Positions 25,381-43,581 of a stretch of DNA of 45,850 bases are shown in pieces (position 1 is the stretch's first letter; each line of letters starts with the position of its first letter). This DNA comes from Rozella allomycis CSF55 (lineage: Eukaryota): NCBI GenBank assembly GCA_000442015.1, contig KE561091.1, forward strand, positions 1 through 45,850, in the 5' to 3' direction. The notes below the pieces were generated by a model that was given only the letters and a program-made list of their open reading frames with translations, had not been told where the DNA came from and ran no database searches. Position numbers and translations under genes: made by a program.

Positions 25381-28245
25381 TTATTTTGATTCATATCGAT
25401 TAAACCATGTGTGGTTACACGCTATTTCAGCGGTTATTCTTTTATCGACATCGGGTTCCAGTAGTGATCGCAATAAACTTAGGGATTCTAATCTGTAATG
25501 GTATAATTCATTACGGTTTGAAAGTACAAAGGGTATTCGAAGCCTGAATTTTAGAATTTCTTCAACATTGTAGAATGGATTTTCTTTGTATATTAATGTG
25601 TACAGAAGAACGCCAAGTGCCCAAACATCTTGAGGCGGGCCAGTATAAAATTTTCCCGACATGATTTCTGGAGCCTAAAATACTACATTTATATTGATGT
25701 TACAGCATAATCAAGTGTTCCACAAAATGACTTGAAAGGTTTTCCGGGCTTCACATAGCTGCTAGACCCGAAATCAATTAATTTGATATTACAATATTGA
25801 TCAAGAATAATATTCTCATCCTATTTAAATATACTCTGTCTAAAATACCTTGATGTCCCTATGTACTATGCCATGTTTATGCAAATGACAAATGGCCTGT
25901 AGAACCTGATAAAAAATATGTTTCAACTCCATTTCAGACATGCCTGTATGAATTTCTATGTAATCAAATAAGTCCATTCCATATCCATGCAGCTTCATTT
26001 CAACGTAATAATAGTCTCTGTCTTCGAAAAACCGTGTCATATCCACCAAATTAGGATGTGAATTGTAATGAAGAAAATTAAGTATTTTGATTTCACTTGG
26101 GACTAGGCCAAGTTTGGAATCTTTCTGCCATGATTCTATTAAGATTTTGTTCTTAAAAATTGATTTTAATACATATTTGGTCTATGAAATATAACTGGGC
26201 ATATTACTCTATCTGAATCACCTTTTCTTCTCACTAACTTGACATGCCCATAAGCACCTTCCCCCAAATCGTCTACAACTTCGTAGTCGGACATTTTAAC
26301 ATTCTTGTTGGGAAATTCATCATCTGAATAATCTAAATTCTCTTTATGTATTGGGGACTCTAGCAAACCAAAAATGTCATAAGATGAACTAGATTCTGTC
26401 ACCTGAATATCACTTTCTATCGATTGTCCCTTTCTCGGAAGTGAAAATGAAATCCAGCACATGTATTGAATAATATCCTTCTCTCTCAGTAATTTTATTT
26501 GCACCAGAACACCAAATTTTGTTCCGTCACGGTGATATGCAATACAAGGAATTCGTTTCGAAATGTTAGTAGTTGGACCGTCTTTTGGTAACGATTCTGG
26601 CAGTAAATTGGAATCTTTCAAAACTTGATTAAAATCAGGCAATAATGAATGTATAAACCATTTGTTTTCTAGTTCTTTGGCCGATATACCAAACAAATAT
26701 TTCGTAAAAAGTGAATTCGTCGATATGATTAATCCATTTCTATCGGTAAATATTACACCCGACAATTCAGGGACAGTTATTACATCAAGCTGAGAAAGAT
26801 TGTATTCTATTTCCCTTATTTGTAGCACCGCAGGTATAGATATCTGATTCCCACTAATGCCATAATACTTTCCTTCTGTAATCATGGCTCTAAATCTTGG
26901 ATGAACTGCAAAGCCATTTTTATGCTCTTTAATTTCAACTAAAGGCGCATCGTTTGGTGTAGGTCTGCTAGCAAAGCCGTCAAGGCTCAATGCAGGTACT
27001 AGTCTAGCTAAATTCAAGTTTGTCAGAGTGCCCTCTGTATATTCAAGTAAATCCAGAAGCATCGGTGTAGCTTCAATCAACTCTTTTATGTTACCCTTTC
27101 GAATTTACCAGTCAATCTTACTTCTGTCGTAATGACAATTTTCAGCACTTGTTCATCCACCTTTTGTAGAATCCATAAAAATATATCCTTTCCTTCATTA
27201 TCCTTGTGTACTCGTAAATAGACTGAAGCAGATACTGTTTTTTGGGAGTCATTCTGATTTATTAAACGGGCCTATATAGAAAAATTGAACTTCATATTTT
27301 ACTATTTTTCCTTTAATTATGGCTTGATCAATCATTCCTTGATGCTTACTTATTATCGTGCGATATTTTTCAGCATAGAATGGCGTGAAAAACGTCCAAA
27401 CTGACTTGCCGTGAGTTTCCTCGACATTGACACCCAAAAGATATTCCAGAGATTTATTAGTCATTAATATTAAAAAATCTTTGTTTGTAACGATTATAGC
27501 ATCATCTGGTATCATGTCAAATCTGTAAGACCAATGTGCTACAGGTATGTGTGTGGGTGTTCTAACAATTGACGCTGGTATCAAATCAAGATCTTTGGTT
27601 TCAATTTTTATAGCGTTTTCAACGTTGTCGTTGCCTTTGCCCTTGTCCTCCTTTACTTTCTTTTCTAATTTTGCGGAGGATGTTTTCCACAATTTATCTT
27701 TCAGGCTCATAAATTCCAATGCTCTTTGCCAAGCGGACACTCTGTATTTTGCACCGGACTTTTTATCAGCAAATGATATACCAAGCGGGGAGGAGAGTAT
27801 CTGGTTGATGTCTTCTTCTTTTGCAAGACCATTGACTCGCATCCTGCTAAGAGCAAAATTGCTTTCATTTAAATCTTTCAGCTTTACGGATCTGTTTGAA
27901 TATTGTTCACCATTTTACGAAGTAGGCATTGGTGGAGAAATAAAATCTGACAAAACCTTAATTGATGAAACAATTAGGGCATGATCATTTAAGTTTAATT
28001 CATATCTATGCATCCAATCTTCAAGAGAAATAAGATCTAGCTGTAGTATGGATAACTTCAAAGTTTCTGTAACTTCTTCACTCCTGAATCTTCAAACAAG
28101 AGCAGATTTACCTTTTCCGTAACGTCAAAAGCTCATCATGGCTTAGATTCTGCGATTGTTTAATTTTTTCAATTATTGAAGGGAGCTCTAAATGCACTAG
28201 AGATGAGATCTCCTCTCTCATGGCATTTGTTGTCGGAGAAAGCAT
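25381..28245 (-). CDS. PAS-domain serine/threonine kinase (PASK/Psk-like); multi-exon, 5' end approximate
   Basis: PAS-like segments (DAIIVTN.., GVIFTDRNGLI..), LGEGAYGHV, GMDLFDYIE, HRDIK-DENII, IDFGS, FCGTLDY, PQDVWALGVLLYTL. Confidence 0.88.
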
Positions 28246-28359: not shown

Positions 28360-28991
28360 ATGAAAGAAGAGACTGAAGAGCCTCTATACACAGTGGAAAA
28401 GATTTTGAAGAAACGCACACAAAAAGTAAAAACATTTTTAGGCTAACACAGGGTCGACTTCAATACCTTATAAAGTGGGAAGGGTATCCTGAGGACGAAA
28501 GCACATGGGAATATGCGTGTGGCATACATGCATACGACTTGATCGATGAATTCGAAAATAAGTTAAAGGCTCAAAGGGGAAAGAGAAAATCGACTGCCGA
28601 GAACACCCAGGAGGAAGAAGAATCGGAGGTTTCATCAAGTGAAAAGCCTAAAGTTAAAGAAGAAGAGAGACAACCGGAAGAAGAGAGACAGCCAGAAGAA
28701 GAAAAACGCCCAGAAGGAGAGAGAAGGTCTAAAAAGAAAAAGGCGGCCGTTAAGGAAGAAGAAGCAGGTGTTCTTGATGATCCTTCAAAGTATGATTTTG
28801 ACTGGGAAGAGAATGTGAGCAAAATAGTAAACTTAGAGAAGACTTCCCAGAAAGGAGAATACTTAGCTACTATATCCTGGAAACACATTAAAGGTCTTTC
28901 TATCTTTCCTATGAGCGTTTGCAGAGAAAAATGCCCACAAAAGTTGATTGATTTTTTCTGTAAATTTATTCACTTTTCGAAACATTTATAA
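28360..28991 (+). CDS. HP1/Swi6-like chromo + chromo-shadow protein; spliced
   Basis: YTVEKILKKR..-GRLQYLIKWEGYPEDESTWE chromodomain; acidic/basic hinge; shadow domain CREKCPQKLIDFF..IHF. Confidence 0.88.
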
Positions 28992-39049: not shown

Positions 39050-40687
39050 ATGGAAAATATTGATATTTACGATCAAATAGAATTTTTGAGATCTAAAATG
39101 TCTTTGTTTCGACTATTGTTACACGATGACAGCAAAGAGAGACAGCAGGGTTTACAAAAGCTACTTGAAGAATTAGACTCCCGGAAAGAAAAAGAAACGA
39201 ATATTCCAGAGTTATATCTATTGACATTCGCAAGACATTTTTATCAATCGTTTGATGAAAATATCAAAGAAAAGTTACTCGAAGTTATAAAGGTTTGCTG
39301 TCTCCTCGTGGTTAATATAGATGTATAATATTAAGAGATTGCATAACTCATGTTCATTTTTCTTTTGTGAAAGTTACAACAACACTGATATCCATCCTTG
39401 TAAGGGAATACAAGGCAAGTGGGAGGATACTGAATTTTATGCAAATATTAGCACCATTTCCTCAATTCCTTGAAAAATATCTAAGATGCTTTCACAGAAC
39501 GTTCGAGCAACAAGGGCCTATTCCCGTAATTTGGAGGTATTTCATCGCAATGATGGTAATTAAATGCGCAATATATAGAATAGGCTGCTTCTAGATTCCA
39601 ATGTAGTTATTTGTTTGATTTATTTAAATTTGATTTCTTGCTTCACGGTGGAAATCCTGAATGGATCAAATACCCATACCGATCAGAAAAACTATTTTCG
39701 CTTGACTATGTGAATTCAACCCTTGCCTATCAGCCATGGAGGCTGAAGTCTGAAGATTTGGAGGTAATAGATATCAATATAACGGAAGTGAGATATTGTT
39801 AAAGAAGAAAGGTTGGTCAAAGGCTGAACTTGTACAAGCGATCACGATTATTTGCCAGGTGCACTCAATGTGTGGCATTGCATTTGGTTGTGGCGTTACT
39901 CCCGAGATTGAACTGCCAAGTGGTTCCATTATTGGCGACCGAAGAGAACCCTCGATCGAGAGTAAACCTGTGCAATCTAATTCGCACTTGGATTTTGTTG
40001 AAAACACCTCACTATTGATTGATAAGCTTAAAAATAACAATAATAATACGAATAACATCCAATTACCAGAGAATAGAGTAAATTTTGAGAAATGTGACGT
40101 TATCGATATGGTGGAGGTTGGCGCGGCGCAAAACAATGAAAATTCCGACTTTAAAGGGTTTTCAAATGTGGAGATGAAACATCAAGATTTTGATGTTCAT
40201 TCTTCTGAATATTCGATATTTAGACTACTGGATTATTCATGGGATGATCATGGGATGATTTTACTGTCGAAGTACTTACCAGACTTGGGAGATTTGTTTA
40301 GTATTGAATTTTACGAAATAAAAAACATGACTGACAAAAGGTATAATCTTTATCATCTTTTTGTAAAGTGTTTATGAGAAAAAGGAAGGGGAAGAAGAAA
40401 TTGATACAGGGCCTTTTAGACAAGCTATTTGGTATTATGTGCTACGTATTAGTGGAATGTGTCATGATGATTATGATTATCAATGCGTGAATAGATACTT
40501 ACCCAGAGATATCAAGTCGTACATAAAGAAGTGTGTTTTCTATCCAAATAATGTTAAAAGAGAAGATTTTGATAATTTGGGTATAAATTTGCGCAGTGAA
40601 GAAAAAGTACATGTAAATCTACTTGCTGTGGAAGCAAGAAAGCAAGCGTGTTTGCTGTATTCATTGTTTGCATTGATGCATAGTTGA
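39050..40687 (+). CDS. SESN: Sestrin; multi-exon
   Basis: SGRILNF..GPIPVIWRYFIAMM-AASRFQCSYL..FLLHGGNPEW; LAYQPW; WSKAELVQAI; DYSWDDHG; DTGPFRQAIWYY; HDDYDY; EKVHVNLLAVEARKQACLLYSL. Confidence 0.93.
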
Positions 40688-40780: not shown

Positions 40781-42385
40781 TTATAGGATGCAACATGTAT
40801 TGGTACTATTCGGATCTCTTATAACATTTAACCTTGTAAAATAATTAACATAAGAGATGCGATTTTGATTCACGTTAAGAATTGTATCAATTTCATCGAG
40901 TTGACGAGCCAAGTCCAGAATCACTGCATTACCAGGGTAGTCTTGAACTTCAACTGTTTCCATTTCTCTGATTATAGTCTCAATTTCTCTCATTTTAGCA
41001 TCAAGATTTTCTTCAAACTCTTTCAAGAGATTAAAATGATGAAGATAATCCGCATATGTAGGCTTTAGTGCAGTCAATTCTGGAATGACCAGTGCATTTT
41101 CCAATAGTTCCAATTTTCCCTTGAAATGGCTTTTAAAGAATTGAAGAGCCTTTGAAAATTCAAACTCAAGCTTTTTGTATTTTGAGTCTCTTACAAAGAA
41201 TTCAACTGTTTTCAATCCTGATTCTTCATATCGATTATCAAAATAAAAATTTTGTAATTTTATTGATTCAATTTTGTTTATGCGATTTCTTAGTTTTTCT
41301 AATGCGTTATTAAAAGTTACAATAGATTTTCCAATATCGAGTCTAAAATTGGTAACCTTCTTTTCCAGAGTTTGTAATTGATTCTTTAAATGCTCAAACT
41401 GGGTAATCTCATCTTTTAATGTTATAGTTTCACTATCAAATACTTTTTCAAGTCTTAAAGTTTCCTCCGAAGATTTATCATTTGCAATTTCAAAAGAAGA
41501 TGGTCTTAAAGCTTTGATTTTCTTTGATCTTTTAATTAAATCAATAGAAAATTCTATGATATTCTTTTGTGTAGCTTCATATCTCGCTAATAATTCTTGC
41601 CGCTGCTGTTTAAGCGTTTCAATTTCAACAGTTTTCTTCTTATAAAGTTCTAATGCTTCTTTAAATTCATTGGCATCATATTTTTTCCCGTTATTTGATA
41701 AACATCTTTTGTAGATTTCTTCATATGCCATCGCTACAAATCTTTTTCTTGATTCCGTAAAAGTCATCACATTGTTCCCTTCAAATGTTGCATAATGACG
41801 GTAAAACAGGAACCCGGAAGAATTTATGAATTTTGATGAATGAGGAGCGAATTCTAACATCTTAGACTTGAATTCCTTTATATATTCTTCTTCAACGCCA
41901 TCATTTCTTAAAATACTGTCCGCGAATGTAAAAATAAACACTATGTGCTCGAATACATCCTTGGATATTAATAAATTAACGTTATTAAACACGCTCTTGA
42001 TATTTTCTTGCAATGCCCAAACAGGAACCAAATACAATATCGTGTCAACCCCATCAGGATAATTTTCAATCAAAGCTCCTGATATTTTAATAGCTGTTTC
42101 AACGCCTTGTTCGCTAGATCCGTCCTTTAATCCTAAAGTACCAGCAACTCTTAATTTTAAGTCTCCAAATGAACACTCTTGAATGCTCATTTTGTTCTCT
42201 TTTATTTCTCTATTGCTAGGTTTCAAGTCACATTTGTTATCTAATACATCGACCAGACTTGATTTCCCAGATCCAGGTGAGCCCAGAATCACTACATTCA
42301 ATGGTTTATGGCAAATACTATCAACTGGAATCGCTATATTTACGCCGACCAAAAGGATAAAAATAAAAGGAAAAAAGATCCACAT
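40781..42385 (-). CDS. AIG1/GIMAP-like P-loop GTPase with signal peptide, coiled coil and C-terminal CaaX; intronless
   Basis: MWIFFPFIFILLVGVNIA; G1 GSPGSGKS; G3-like VAGTLG; YPDGVDTILYLV; G4 IFTFAD; heptad-rich C-terminal half; ends TCCIL-stop. Confidence 0.78.
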   Translation of the reverse strand: MWIFFPFIFILLVGVNIAIPVDSICHKPLNVVILGSPGSGKSSLVDVLDNKCDLKPSNREIKENKMSIQECSFGDLKLRVAGTLGLKDGSSEQGVETAIKISGALIENYPDGVDTILYLVPVWALQENIKSVFNNVNLLISKDVFEHIVFIFTFADSILRNDGVEEEYIKEFKSKMLEFAPHSSKFINSSGFLFYRHYATFEGNNVMTFTESRKRFVAMAYEEIYKRCLSNNGKKYDANEFKEALELYKKKTVEIETLKQQRQELLARYEATQKNIIEFSIDLIKRSKKIKALRPSSFEIANDKSSEETLRLEKVFDSETITLKDEITQFEHLKNQLQTLEKKVTNFRLDIGKSIVTFNNALEKLRNRINKIESIKLQNFYFDNRYEESGLKTVEFFVRDSKYKKLEFEFSKALQFFKSHFKGKLELLENALVIPELTALKPTYADYLHHFNLLKEFEENLDAKMREIETIIREMETVEVQDYPGNAVILDLARQLDEIDTILNVNQNRISYVNYFTRLNVIRDPNSTNTCCIL

Positions 42386-42542
42386 CCCCTGTAATCTGAG
42401 AAGATTCAATTTTCTTAACAAATAAAGATCATGATTAATGTACTTAGAGCCAAATCAAAAATTAGGAAAATGTTTTCGTCATAAGATTAACGTCATATTT
42501 GCCCGTTGTCGNAACCTCGCCACTAGTACTACAACTTTACTA

Positions 42543-43581
42543 ATGGGAGACGACGATTACCTTGACCCTGTAAAAATACATTGTTAAATATACTAGGAAT
42601 CTGAATATGAACCTTTAGAAGATGAAGAACTCGAAGGTAAAAGGAAAAGAGGTCGACCCAGGAAAGTTCTTCCTCAGCCCACCCCTATCCAAGAAACAGT
42701 AAAAGAAACACGTTTGCCTACGCTGGAAGAAATTCAAGAACGTTCATTACTAGAAAAAGGGGAGATTATTATGAATGATGATCCAAACGGGGCGCGAAAA
42801 TTGCTTGAAAAAATGGGATATCCCATTCCAGAGGAGGTTACCGGTCCATTGGGATTTCATGTTTTCCAACTGGCTAGCAGATTAAATGAAAAGAATTTAA
42901 AAATGTTCTACGCGAATTCTCTTGAAGTCGGAAGGCATTTGGGCTTTAGGGATAGTTACACATTTTATTTAAAACATGATCATTTTGTGAAAATACCAGT
43001 GAGTGAAATTGAGAGAAATTGGCTGATAGAGAAACGCTTGGTGGCACCAACATCCAGGTCCAGGACAATGTCATTTTTAAGGCTTGATTTGCTGCTAAAT
43101 TTTTTCACTTTTACTCCTCTGTTAGCGGAAAATGCTGTAAAACCTCCTTCTACTGTACGAGTCGGTAAGCCATTCAGTTATTTTATAAAAAGGCACTGAA
43201 GTTTTCATTGAAGTAGAATCCGATGAAGAAGCTAAATACCTATCTGATGATGAAGCTATGTATGCCACAAGATATCGCAAAAAGCTTGCGAAACCTCCTA
43301 ATGAAGACGGTGACCAACAAGACAAAGCTTTTGCTGATGCTTGTAAAAAATCAGCGTCTTACAATTCTCACCTCGCCATGATGAGATCAAACAGATCTTC
43401 TCTGTCACAATTCAATTTACATACAGAGGAAACTTTAGTACCCTTTAAATATGTCTCTCCGTTTAATCAATGGTGCCAACCACAAAATGATGTCAGCGCT
43501 TTCAGGGTAGTTCTATACGATCGCCCAGAAAGGACCTATACAAAGCCTGCTTTATTAAAACACCAGAATAAATTTCATTGA
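42543..43581 (+). CDS. Chromatin-remodelling subunit Rsc7/Swp82 (Npl6)-like with AT-hook; spliced, 3' end approximate
   Basis: KRGRPRK AT-hook; DDPNGARK; EVGRHLGFRDSYTFY..ERNWLIE..SRSR; KSASYNSHL...LHTEETLVP. Confidence 0.78.

Follow-up and report, generated by a model that had tools for sequence, protein, structure and literature searches.

A divergent GIMAP-like, probable pseudo-GTPase of Rozella allomycis as a candidate host-directed protein with a CaaX-type C-terminus

The stretch of DNA analysed here (hereafter the window) comprises 45,850 nucleotides of Rozella allomycis CSF55 (GenBank assembly GCA_000442015.1, contig KE561091.1, positions 1 to 45,850 of the forward strand). On its minus strand lies a gene for a protein, P0001, that a first-pass annotation had described as an intronless gene for a secreted AIG1/GIMAP-like GTPase ending in a CaaX box, and as a candidate for an effector prenylated by the host. 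The gene does read as a single uninterrupted open reading frame (ORF) of 534 residues followed by a stop, and the frame stays open in the 5' direction as far as position 42454 with no earlier ATG. In a 12-row alignment of the family to which P0001 belongs (alignment A1), its Met1 falls on the Met1 of the paralogues, and P0001 is colinear with them from end to end, so that no intron is needed. Two housekeeping genes on the opposite strand, one sestrin-like and one Rsc7/Swp82-like, flank the gene. The former ends at about 40687 and the latter likely starts with the ATG at 42543, and the spacers of about 93 bp on the sestrin-like side and about 157 bp on the Rsc7/Swp82-like side, where transcription diverges, leave no room for an upstream exon. 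An upstream exon was considered because the sequence TTACAG before Met1 resembles a splice acceptor; it was rejected given the alignment of Met1 with the paralogue start codons and the ~157-bp spacer. Since the presequence is conserved in the family, the secretion signal can be regarded as a family trait and Met1 as the true start, and the N-terminus is translated as part of the protein. The features of P0001 are collected in Table 1.

Table 1. Coordinates of the P0001 gene and of the features of its product in the window
Feature	Residues	Window positions	Strand	Remarks
Complete intronless coding sequence, P0001		40781..42385	minus	534 codons plus TAA at 40781-40783
N-terminal presequence	1-24	42314..42385	minus	hydrophobic signal sequence or possible signal anchor
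AIG1/GIMAP-type G domain	~27-235	41681..42307	minus	Pfam AIG1 on 29-177, VIA, Foldseek
G1/P-loop GSPGSGKS, intact	35-42	42260..42283	minus	Gly38, Lys41 and Ser42 invariant in A1
Switch I remnant	64-71	42173..42196	minus	about 9 residues shorter than in paralogues, without the G2 Thr (A1)
Degenerate G3	80-86	42128..42148	minus	Gly82 for the Walker-B Asp, Leu84 for Pro; Thr83 and Gly85 kept
G4-like T-F-A-D	153-156	41918..41929	minus	A1; aligned with the GIMAP7 G4 strand by the family profile
Helical stalk	238-503	40877..41674	minus	long antiparallel helices, predicted; ~260 residues
Lost-sequon site (K-K-V-T)	342-347	41345..41362	minus	A1 column 461; Asn lost, Lys instead
Disordered C-terminal tail	504-534	40784..40876	minus	pLDDT <50 in two models; N-S-T sequon at 526-528
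CaaX-type tetrapeptide CCIL	531-534	40784..40795	minus	unique within the family; TAA follows

P0001 was searched exhaustively with phmmer against 1.84 billion representatives, which gave 27 proteins at E<=1e-3, itself among them, and 15 of these at E<=1e-10. All 14 non-self matches at the stricter threshold are from R. allomycis CSF55, as is the weaker match P0017, and several of the Rozella matches bear the UniRef name 'AIG1-type G domain-containing protein'. Six of the 12 weaker matches were looked up, and among these one is from Rozella, one from Rhizophagus irregularis and one from Athelia. A word-indexed search with the G domain of a typical member likewise found Rozella proteins only (3/3), while word-indexed homologue searches with P0001 and with A1 returned the query alone, probably because words from the low-complexity stalk swamped them. 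With every non-self match at the stricter threshold belonging to an obligate endoparasite, the endoparasitic origin supposed by the first-pass annotation is very probably correct. The paralogues that it had proposed to look for were also found: the homology in A1 spans the presequence, the G domain, the stalk and a conserved distal segment, and P0001 appears to belong to a lineage-specific family of AIG1/GIMAP-type GTPases with no fewer than a dozen paralogues, every one of them from R. allomycis. Within the window, blastp and tblastn detected no paralogue of the gene. One predicted protein (P0002/P0028) contains two tandem family units, namely the end of one, a stalk and a second complete G domain, and is either an annotation-fused tandem gene pair or a true two-domain form. 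Our literature search found nothing on an AIG1/GIMAP-like family in Rozella, although its genes may figure in a secretome table of James et al. (2013), who described the Rozella genome.

Within this family, P0001 stands apart. A quick maximum-likelihood tree was computed from 17 rows, of which one was P0001, 11 were further Rozella rows and five were outgroup G domains; near-duplicates, short fragments and multi-domain matches were omitted. In this tree P0001 is sister to all other Rozella rows. The Shimodaira-Hasegawa-like approximate likelihood-ratio test (SH-aLRT) gives 99 for the Rozella clade and 93 for its 11 rows other than P0001, and the end branch of P0001 measures 1.14 substitutions per site. 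P0001 is the most divergent member of the family. It is also the only member that has lost the G3 Asp together with the switch-I Thr, the basic n-region and the conserved stalk sequon, and the only one with a good CaaX.

The assignment of the G domain, which the first-pass annotation had called AIG1-type, is borne out by several comparisons. The best Pfam family for P0001 is AIG1 (PF04548), at 24.1 bits and E 2.5e-5, a score under the gathering score of 27, and the same family is matched by all 12 rows of A1 at E<=0.01 (best 4.3e-14). A profile of the Rozella family matches GIMAP7 (1e-10), GIMAP4 (2.5e-10) and Toc34 (2.8e-7), and septins more weakly. An AlphaFold2 model of P0001 computed from a 21-row alignment (predicted local distance difference test, pLDDT, 81.8; predicted template modelling score, pTM, 0.66) was compared with known structures by VIA, in which residues 27-253 of the model align with GIMAP7 at Z 17.6 and a root-mean-square deviation (rmsd) of 3.4 over 202 residues; GIMAP2 follows at Z 17.5, GIMAP1 and GIMAP5 at 17.1, Toc34 at 16.5 (15.6-16.5 for Toc34/33) and Arf/Arl at about 15 or lower. 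The top Foldseek matches are GIMAPs as well (E 3.3e-9), and the clusters listed for P0001 in a language-model atlas are solely AIG1/MMR_HSR1. When P0001 alone was searched against PDB sequences, the sole match, a coiled coil of 25 residues at E 0.44, was rejected.

The nucleotide-binding motifs have decayed unevenly. The paralogues have V-V-D-T-P-G-F at G3, where P0001 has V-A-G-T-L-G-L, so that the Asp replacement noticed by the first-pass annotation is real: the Asp column is at least 90% conserved in A1, and the exception is Gly82 of P0001. The G2 Thr is gone too, because a gap of about nine residues in switch I removes a V-T stretch found in the paralogues and in GIMAP7, where the family consensus V-T-K-x-C aligns by profile with the corresponding switch-I stretch. 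The G4 specificity motif in the AIG1/GIMAP clade is of the T-x-x-D type, and the T-F-A-D of P0001 lines up with F-T-x-A-D in the family and, in GIMAP7, with the G4 strand. Since the G2 Thr and the G3 Asp serve in the coordination of Mg2+ and the gamma-phosphate, their loss suggests that P0001 is probably a pseudo-GTPase, as the annotation had proposed, which would bind nucleotide at best and not undergo GTPase cycling. Its fold and profile matches place it in the AIG1/GIMAP clade, where we class it as a divergent pseudo-GTPase with G2 and G3 both degenerate. In two paralogues, P0010 and P0005, the P-loops are degraded (G-A-E-K-S and G-A-S-K-S) and the G3 glycine is gone (D-T-P-E-F and D-T-P-V-F); the decay of GTPase motifs thus recurs in the family.

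The region that follows the G domain had been described as a coiled coil. Long helices are indeed predicted there, and the stalk folded alone reaches a pLDDT of 82.6, but in the models it looks like an antiparallel helical bundle and not like one long parallel coiled coil. Foldseek with the stalk alone found nothing at E<=0.001 (best E 0.16), and in a wide VIA comparison the best Z was 9.8, with BAR/F-BAR at about 8, short of the value of about 13 below which matches between helical proteins count as noise; we therefore name no specific known fold for the modelled stalk. The stalk sequence is variable in the family except at one position, where a basic residue followed by an N-x-S/T sequon occurs in 9/9 other rows (eight distinct paralogues). 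This conserved N-x-S/T may serve for N-glycosylation, or its Asn and Thr may have a structural role as a pair. Its conservation in all nine rows fits passage through the endoplasmic reticulum (ER).

The first-pass annotation had also claimed a strong N-terminal signal peptide. The hydrophobic N-terminus is confirmed and is shared with the paralogues, while its strength and its cleavage are not. In P0001, residues 1-19 are hydrophobic (with the h-region within 2-19) and are followed by Pro20 and Cys25; Met1, Pro20 and Cys25 are near-invariant across the family in A1, and residues 1-18 have pLDDT <50 in the AlphaFold2 model. Ten distinct paralogues have an N-terminus (P0029/P0003, P0031/P0013, P0017/P0033, P0007, P0030, P0010, P0005, P0009, P0004 and P0032; for P0010 and P0004 an internal Met was taken as the start, and fragments and truncated models were left uncounted). 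All ten begin with M-K(-K) and a hydrophobic run, with 22-26 residues before the conserved Cys, which P0032 lacks. An untrained (-3,-1) script places rule-of-thumb cleavage sites in P0001 between V-D-S and I, after Ser23, and between S-I-C and H, after Cys25. Insertion into a membrane was scored as the plain sum of the Hessa biological hydrophobicity scale over 19-residue windows. On this score, the best window lies at +2.6 to +8 kcal/mol in 9/11 other N-termini (8/10 distinct paralogues), and the remaining two are near zero (+0.11 and +0.38). Eight of the ten paralogue N-termini thus seem too polar to span a membrane, which argues that they are signal peptides and not anchors.

At the other end of the protein, the terminal CCIL reported by the first-pass annotation is present immediately before the stop codon. 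Position -4 is taken by Cys, a2 by Ile and X by Leu, with an additional Cys within the tetrapeptide. By the CaaX rules, Leu at X designates a substrate of the geranylgeranyltransferase I (GGTase-I) type, and CCIL is the same tetrapeptide as in the CaaX of mammalian RalA. Located on a disordered tail, this motif would make a good GGTase-I substrate, modifiable only on meeting a cytosol. Its function is further suggested by the high quality of the motif, by the 30-residue disordered polar tail that carries it and by the frequency of C-terminal anchoring in AIG1 relatives; among the matches, a leucine-rich repeat (LRR)-AIG1 protein of Rhizophagus ends in a strict CaaX and another match has Cys at -4. 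According to the excerpts of PMC13393502 that deal with them, Rozellids keep a prenyltransferase alpha subunit as well as CaaX-bearing Rho and Rap, so that either cytosol, that of the host or that of the parasite, could perform the chemistry.

How often such an end would arise by chance was estimated from the composition of the 23 ORFs of at least 150 residues in the window (6,879 residues). Given this composition, 0.12% of proteins should end in C-a-a-X, or 0.22% if a1 is permissive. With a gene number that we take to be about six thousand, some 8-14 chance CaaX ends would be expected per proteome, and about one among the signal-peptide proteins, for which reason the pairing of a signal peptide with a CaaX is not by itself significant. 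Cysteine, at 1.4% of residues, occurs within the last five residues in 3/9 complete family C-termini (P0001, P0007 and P0030), and two of these three members share one clade. P0001 has six Cys in all, four of them at conserved family positions: Cys25 and Cys228 are found in 11/11 rows, Cys71 in 10/11 and Cys52 in 8/12.

Taken together, we consider it on balance probable that P0001 is a secretory-pathway, effector-like, GIMAP-type pseudo-GTPase delivered to the parasite surface or the host interface, a reading that we draw from sequence comparison and modelling. Like its paralogues, P0001 would enter the parasite secretory pathway and arrive at the surface of the intracellular plasmodium, which has no wall, at the host-parasite interface or beyond; there it may act as a non-cycling, GIMAP-like, membrane-associated scaffold or decoy. 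It is thus a candidate, as yet unproven, for a protein sent to the host. Several points weigh against this reading. P0001 starts with M-W, uncharged and without a basic n-region, whereas 10/10 paralogues start with M-K, and its best 19-residue window, at -0.67, is the sole negative (membrane-spanning) score in the family, so that its N-terminus could be an uncleaved anchor, a difficulty that the first-pass annotation had itself foreseen; this weakens the proposal of that annotation for P0001, while most of the paralogues remain too polar to span. Under the strict (-3,-1) rule, three paralogues are without a canonical cleavage site. P0001 is without the stalk sequon that the other rows keep. 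The proposal of the first-pass annotation is weakened as well by the CaaX, which is not conserved in the paralogues: a strict CaaX (C-aliphatic-aliphatic-X) occurs in 0/8 other complete C-termini of distinct paralogues, and the one with Cys at -4 ends in CLKA, with Lys at a2; these C-termini come from predicted gene models whose 3' ends are unconfirmed. A nucleotide-binding domain outside any cytosol is also hard to rationalise, and to reach the host P0001 would have to cross the host-derived membrane around the parasite, a step that is undemonstrated.

The full chain of events, in essence that of the first-pass annotation, is a more specific version of the favoured reading: the signal peptide is cleaved, P0001 crosses into the cytosol of the host (Allomyces), host GGTase-I modifies Cys531, the neighbouring Cys is perhaps palmitoylated, and anchoring on host membranes lets the pseudo-GTPase act as a decoy or scaffold. 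If the tail reached the host cytosol, geranylgeranylation would be near-automatic, given that CCIL fits the GGTase-I type and sits on a tail with pLDDT <50. Cytosolic AIG1 relatives are often anchored by their C-terminus, as in the Rhizophagus LRR-AIG1 protein, and most paralogues retain G1, G3 and G4 despite their signal peptide, a pattern that speaks for action where nucleotide is present, for example in the host cytosol. Excerpts of PMC2916131 and PMC13423502 also describe an established precedent in the CaaX effectors of intracellular bacteria. However, the absence of a strict CaaX from all eight other complete C-termini (only one of them with Cys at -4) and a chance expectation of 0.0012-0.0022 per protein of such composition speak against the chain, as does the N-S-T sequon five residues upstream of CCIL, which could be glycosylated in the ER. 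The parasite is moreover enclosed in a compartment bounded by host membrane, with no translocation route known. Because there is no known route across this host-derived membrane and the motif is not conserved, we regard host prenylation as somewhat unlikely. A null explanation, which overlaps with the favoured reading and which we find possible though short of probable, is that the CaaX arose by chance in a secreted or lumenal protein that never meets a prenyltransferase, the terminal Cys pair being inert or forming a disulfide. The random rate of 0.12-0.22% per protein and the lack of conservation of the motif in the family are consistent with this explanation, and the Cys in the last five residues of three of the nine complete C-termini, P0001 counted, hints at a role of Cys other than prenylation; the six Cys of P0001, four at conserved positions, point the same way. 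What chance explains less well is the quality of the motif (Ile at a2, Leu at X, a second Cys in the tetrapeptide), its polar disordered setting and the fact that C-terminal membrane anchors are common in AIG1 relatives.

The peculiarities of the P0001 N-terminus invite a different explanation, in which the topology is flipped: the N-terminus would be an uncleaved anchor facing outside, with the G domain, the stalk and the tail in the Rozella cytosol, where the parasite's own GGTase-I would prenylate CCIL. P0001 would then be a doubly anchored intracellular GIMAP-like scaffold, either reverted from a secreted state or preserving a pre-effector state. N-terminal charge and hydrophobic length are determinants of the orientation of signal anchors, and it is in these that P0001 differs from its paralogues: it alone has no Lys after Met1 (0 versus 10/10), no other member has so long an uncharged hydrophobic run, and none of the other insertion scores is negative. 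The loss of the sequon present in 9/9 other rows and the gain of the sole good CaaX in the family would both make sense if the body of P0001 faced the Rozella cytosol, and the position of P0001 as sister to all other paralogues (SH-aLRT 93) is compatible with such a switch. The prenyltransferase alpha subunit and the CaaX-bearing Rho/Rap of Rozellids, as described in the excerpts of PMC13393502, would supply the chemistry. Nevertheless, the same segment also reads as an ordinary signal peptide, with a 14-residue h-region followed by Asn, Pro and the V-D-S site; its C-terminal flank (Asp22, His26, Lys27) is not basic, unlike that of typical anchors with the N-terminus outside; two paralogues also score near zero (+0.11 and +0.38); and Pro20 and Cys25 are common to P0001 and the secreted paralogues. 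A flipped topology, the main structural rival of the favoured reading, seems quite unlikely to us. It is very improbable that P0001 is a decaying or unexpressed paralogue without function. The long branch of 1.14 substitutions per site and the loss of catalytic motifs could be read in this way, but the frame is open over 534 codons at 31-38% GC, the protein is colinear with its paralogues over its full length with structural positions conserved, and the model is confident (pLDDT 81.8).

The favoured reading can be set beside several known systems. The G-domain fold of P0001 is that of the GIMAP/IAN/AIG1 proteins (human GIMAP7, 2, 1 and 5; VIA Z 17.1-17.6, rmsd ~3.3 over ~200 residues), and like them P0001 has a helical extension after the G domain and a membrane-anchoring element at the C-terminus, in its case a putative CaaX. 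It differs from GIMAPs in having an N-terminal secretion signal and a CaaX instead of a hydrophobic tail, in the loss of the G2 Thr and the G3 Asp, in a stalk of ~260 residues without a matched fold and in a Pfam score under the gathering threshold. Among the 91 complete AIG genes of the snail Biomphalaria, none encodes a signal peptide according to the excerpts of PMC7053062 concerned with them, which suggests that the presequence is an unusual trait of the Rozella family. The chloroplast import GTPases Toc34/Toc33 fall in the same structural G-domain clade (Z 15.6-16.5; profile 2.8e-7) and are membrane-anchored, but they belong to another organelle context and are without signal peptide, long stalk and CaaX. 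Farnesylated hGBP1 resembles P0001 in its overall plan, in which an elongated helical domain follows the G domain and a prenylation signal ends the protein (6k1z, Foldseek E 1.6e-5 over the whole length); however, the template modelling (TM) score is 0.22-0.26 with an rmsd >40, and the G domain of P0001 is nearer to GIMAP than to the dynamin/GBP class. Membership in the GBP/bacterial-dynamin group was rejected, since GBP1 and LeoA align over 570-620 columns but with TM 0.22-0.28. The Rhizophagus irregularis LRR-AIG1 protein P0021 has an AIG1-like G domain (E 4.1e-5) and a strict CaaX end, and so CaaX anchoring does occur among fungal AIG1 relatives; it differs from P0001 in carrying an LRR region at its N-terminus and in lacking a signal peptide, and the two are only distantly related.

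Among intracellular residents, excerpts of PMC3417536 report that the symbiont Amoebophilus has GIMAP-like GTPase domains as effectors, with a proposed role in host membrane remodelling. The likeness to P0001, a GIMAP/AIG1-type G domain in an intracellular resident, is by description and not by sequence; the Amoebophilus effectors are bacterial proteins delivered by bacterial export systems, whereas Rozella is a eukaryote whose protein has a putative ER signal peptide. Host-prenylated CaaX effectors are described in Legionella (an F-box effector) and Salmonella (GtgE) in the excerpts of PMC2916131 and PMC13423502. Here the likeness is that a parasite protein ends in a CaaX modifiable solely by a eukaryotic cytosol. 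The bacterial effectors are injected directly into the host cytosol by type III/IV systems and their prenylation has been shown; delivery of P0001 would, unlike theirs, need the eukaryotic secretory pathway and the crossing of a host membrane.

Rozella, a relative of Microsporidia, belongs to a fungal lineage that is among the earliest to diverge. In other organisms, AIG1/GIMAP proteins serve in the cytosol as immune or membrane scaffolds, and a lineage-specific, expanded, fast-diverging and signal-peptide-bearing family of GIMAP-like GTPases may therefore offer clonable candidates for the handling of host membranes by an unwalled intracellular parasite. We speculate that P0001 could be a host-lipidated effector of one eukaryote acting on another, a Rozella pseudo-GTPase that exits via the secretory pathway and is geranylgeranylated by the GGTase-I of Allomyces, although we think this unlikely. 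In its boldest form, the hydrophobic N-terminus would stay in the plasma membrane of the parasite and the prenylated tail would enter the host membrane that faces it, so that the stalk would act as a tether between the parasite surface and host cisternae or organelles. If the host-lipidated reading were true, this would be the first family of candidate effectors in the Rozellomycota, one that mimics immune-type GTPases; our search of the literature found no characterised Rozella effector. Moreover, from the literature searched, we know of no other eukaryotic parasite that borrows host prenylation, so that a CaaX in use would make P0001 the first such case, comparable with Legionella and Salmonella. 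If the CaaX is unused, the contrast with the paralogues would show that few changes in the presequence may switch between a secreted and an anchored state. The combination of a secretion signal with a high-quality CaaX in one protein makes the question sharply testable, with a yes or no answer.

The surroundings of the gene are those of an ordinary eukaryotic genome. The GC content in the window is 0.31-0.38, about 35%, and the published genome of R. allomycis has 11.86 Mb and 34.5% GC (PMC5701793 Table 1). Other genes in the window encode NPL4, Gpi1, a guanylate kinase, an HP1-like protein, an NXF1-like protein and others. The sestrin (PA26) gene (39367-40687, plus strand) consists of at least four ORF pieces with very short gaps between them, which suggests tiny introns, and its 3' end, about 93 bp from the stop codon of the AIG1-like gene, makes for a tight convergence of both genes. 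In the Rsc7/Swp82-like gene (42543-43196, plus strand), a candidate 27-nt intron (42570-42596, GT...AG) would join a 9-codon first exon in frame; longer alternatives are also in frame. Isolated single-base N calls occur at five positions of the window (20819, 23098, 23226, 42512 and 44905), and that at 42512 lies inside the 157-bp divergent promoter region between the AIG1-like and Rsc7-like genes. Farther away, a gene for the HP1-like protein, with chromo and chromo-shadow domains (28377-28988, plus strand), adjoins one for a PAS-domain protein (27252-27914, minus strand).

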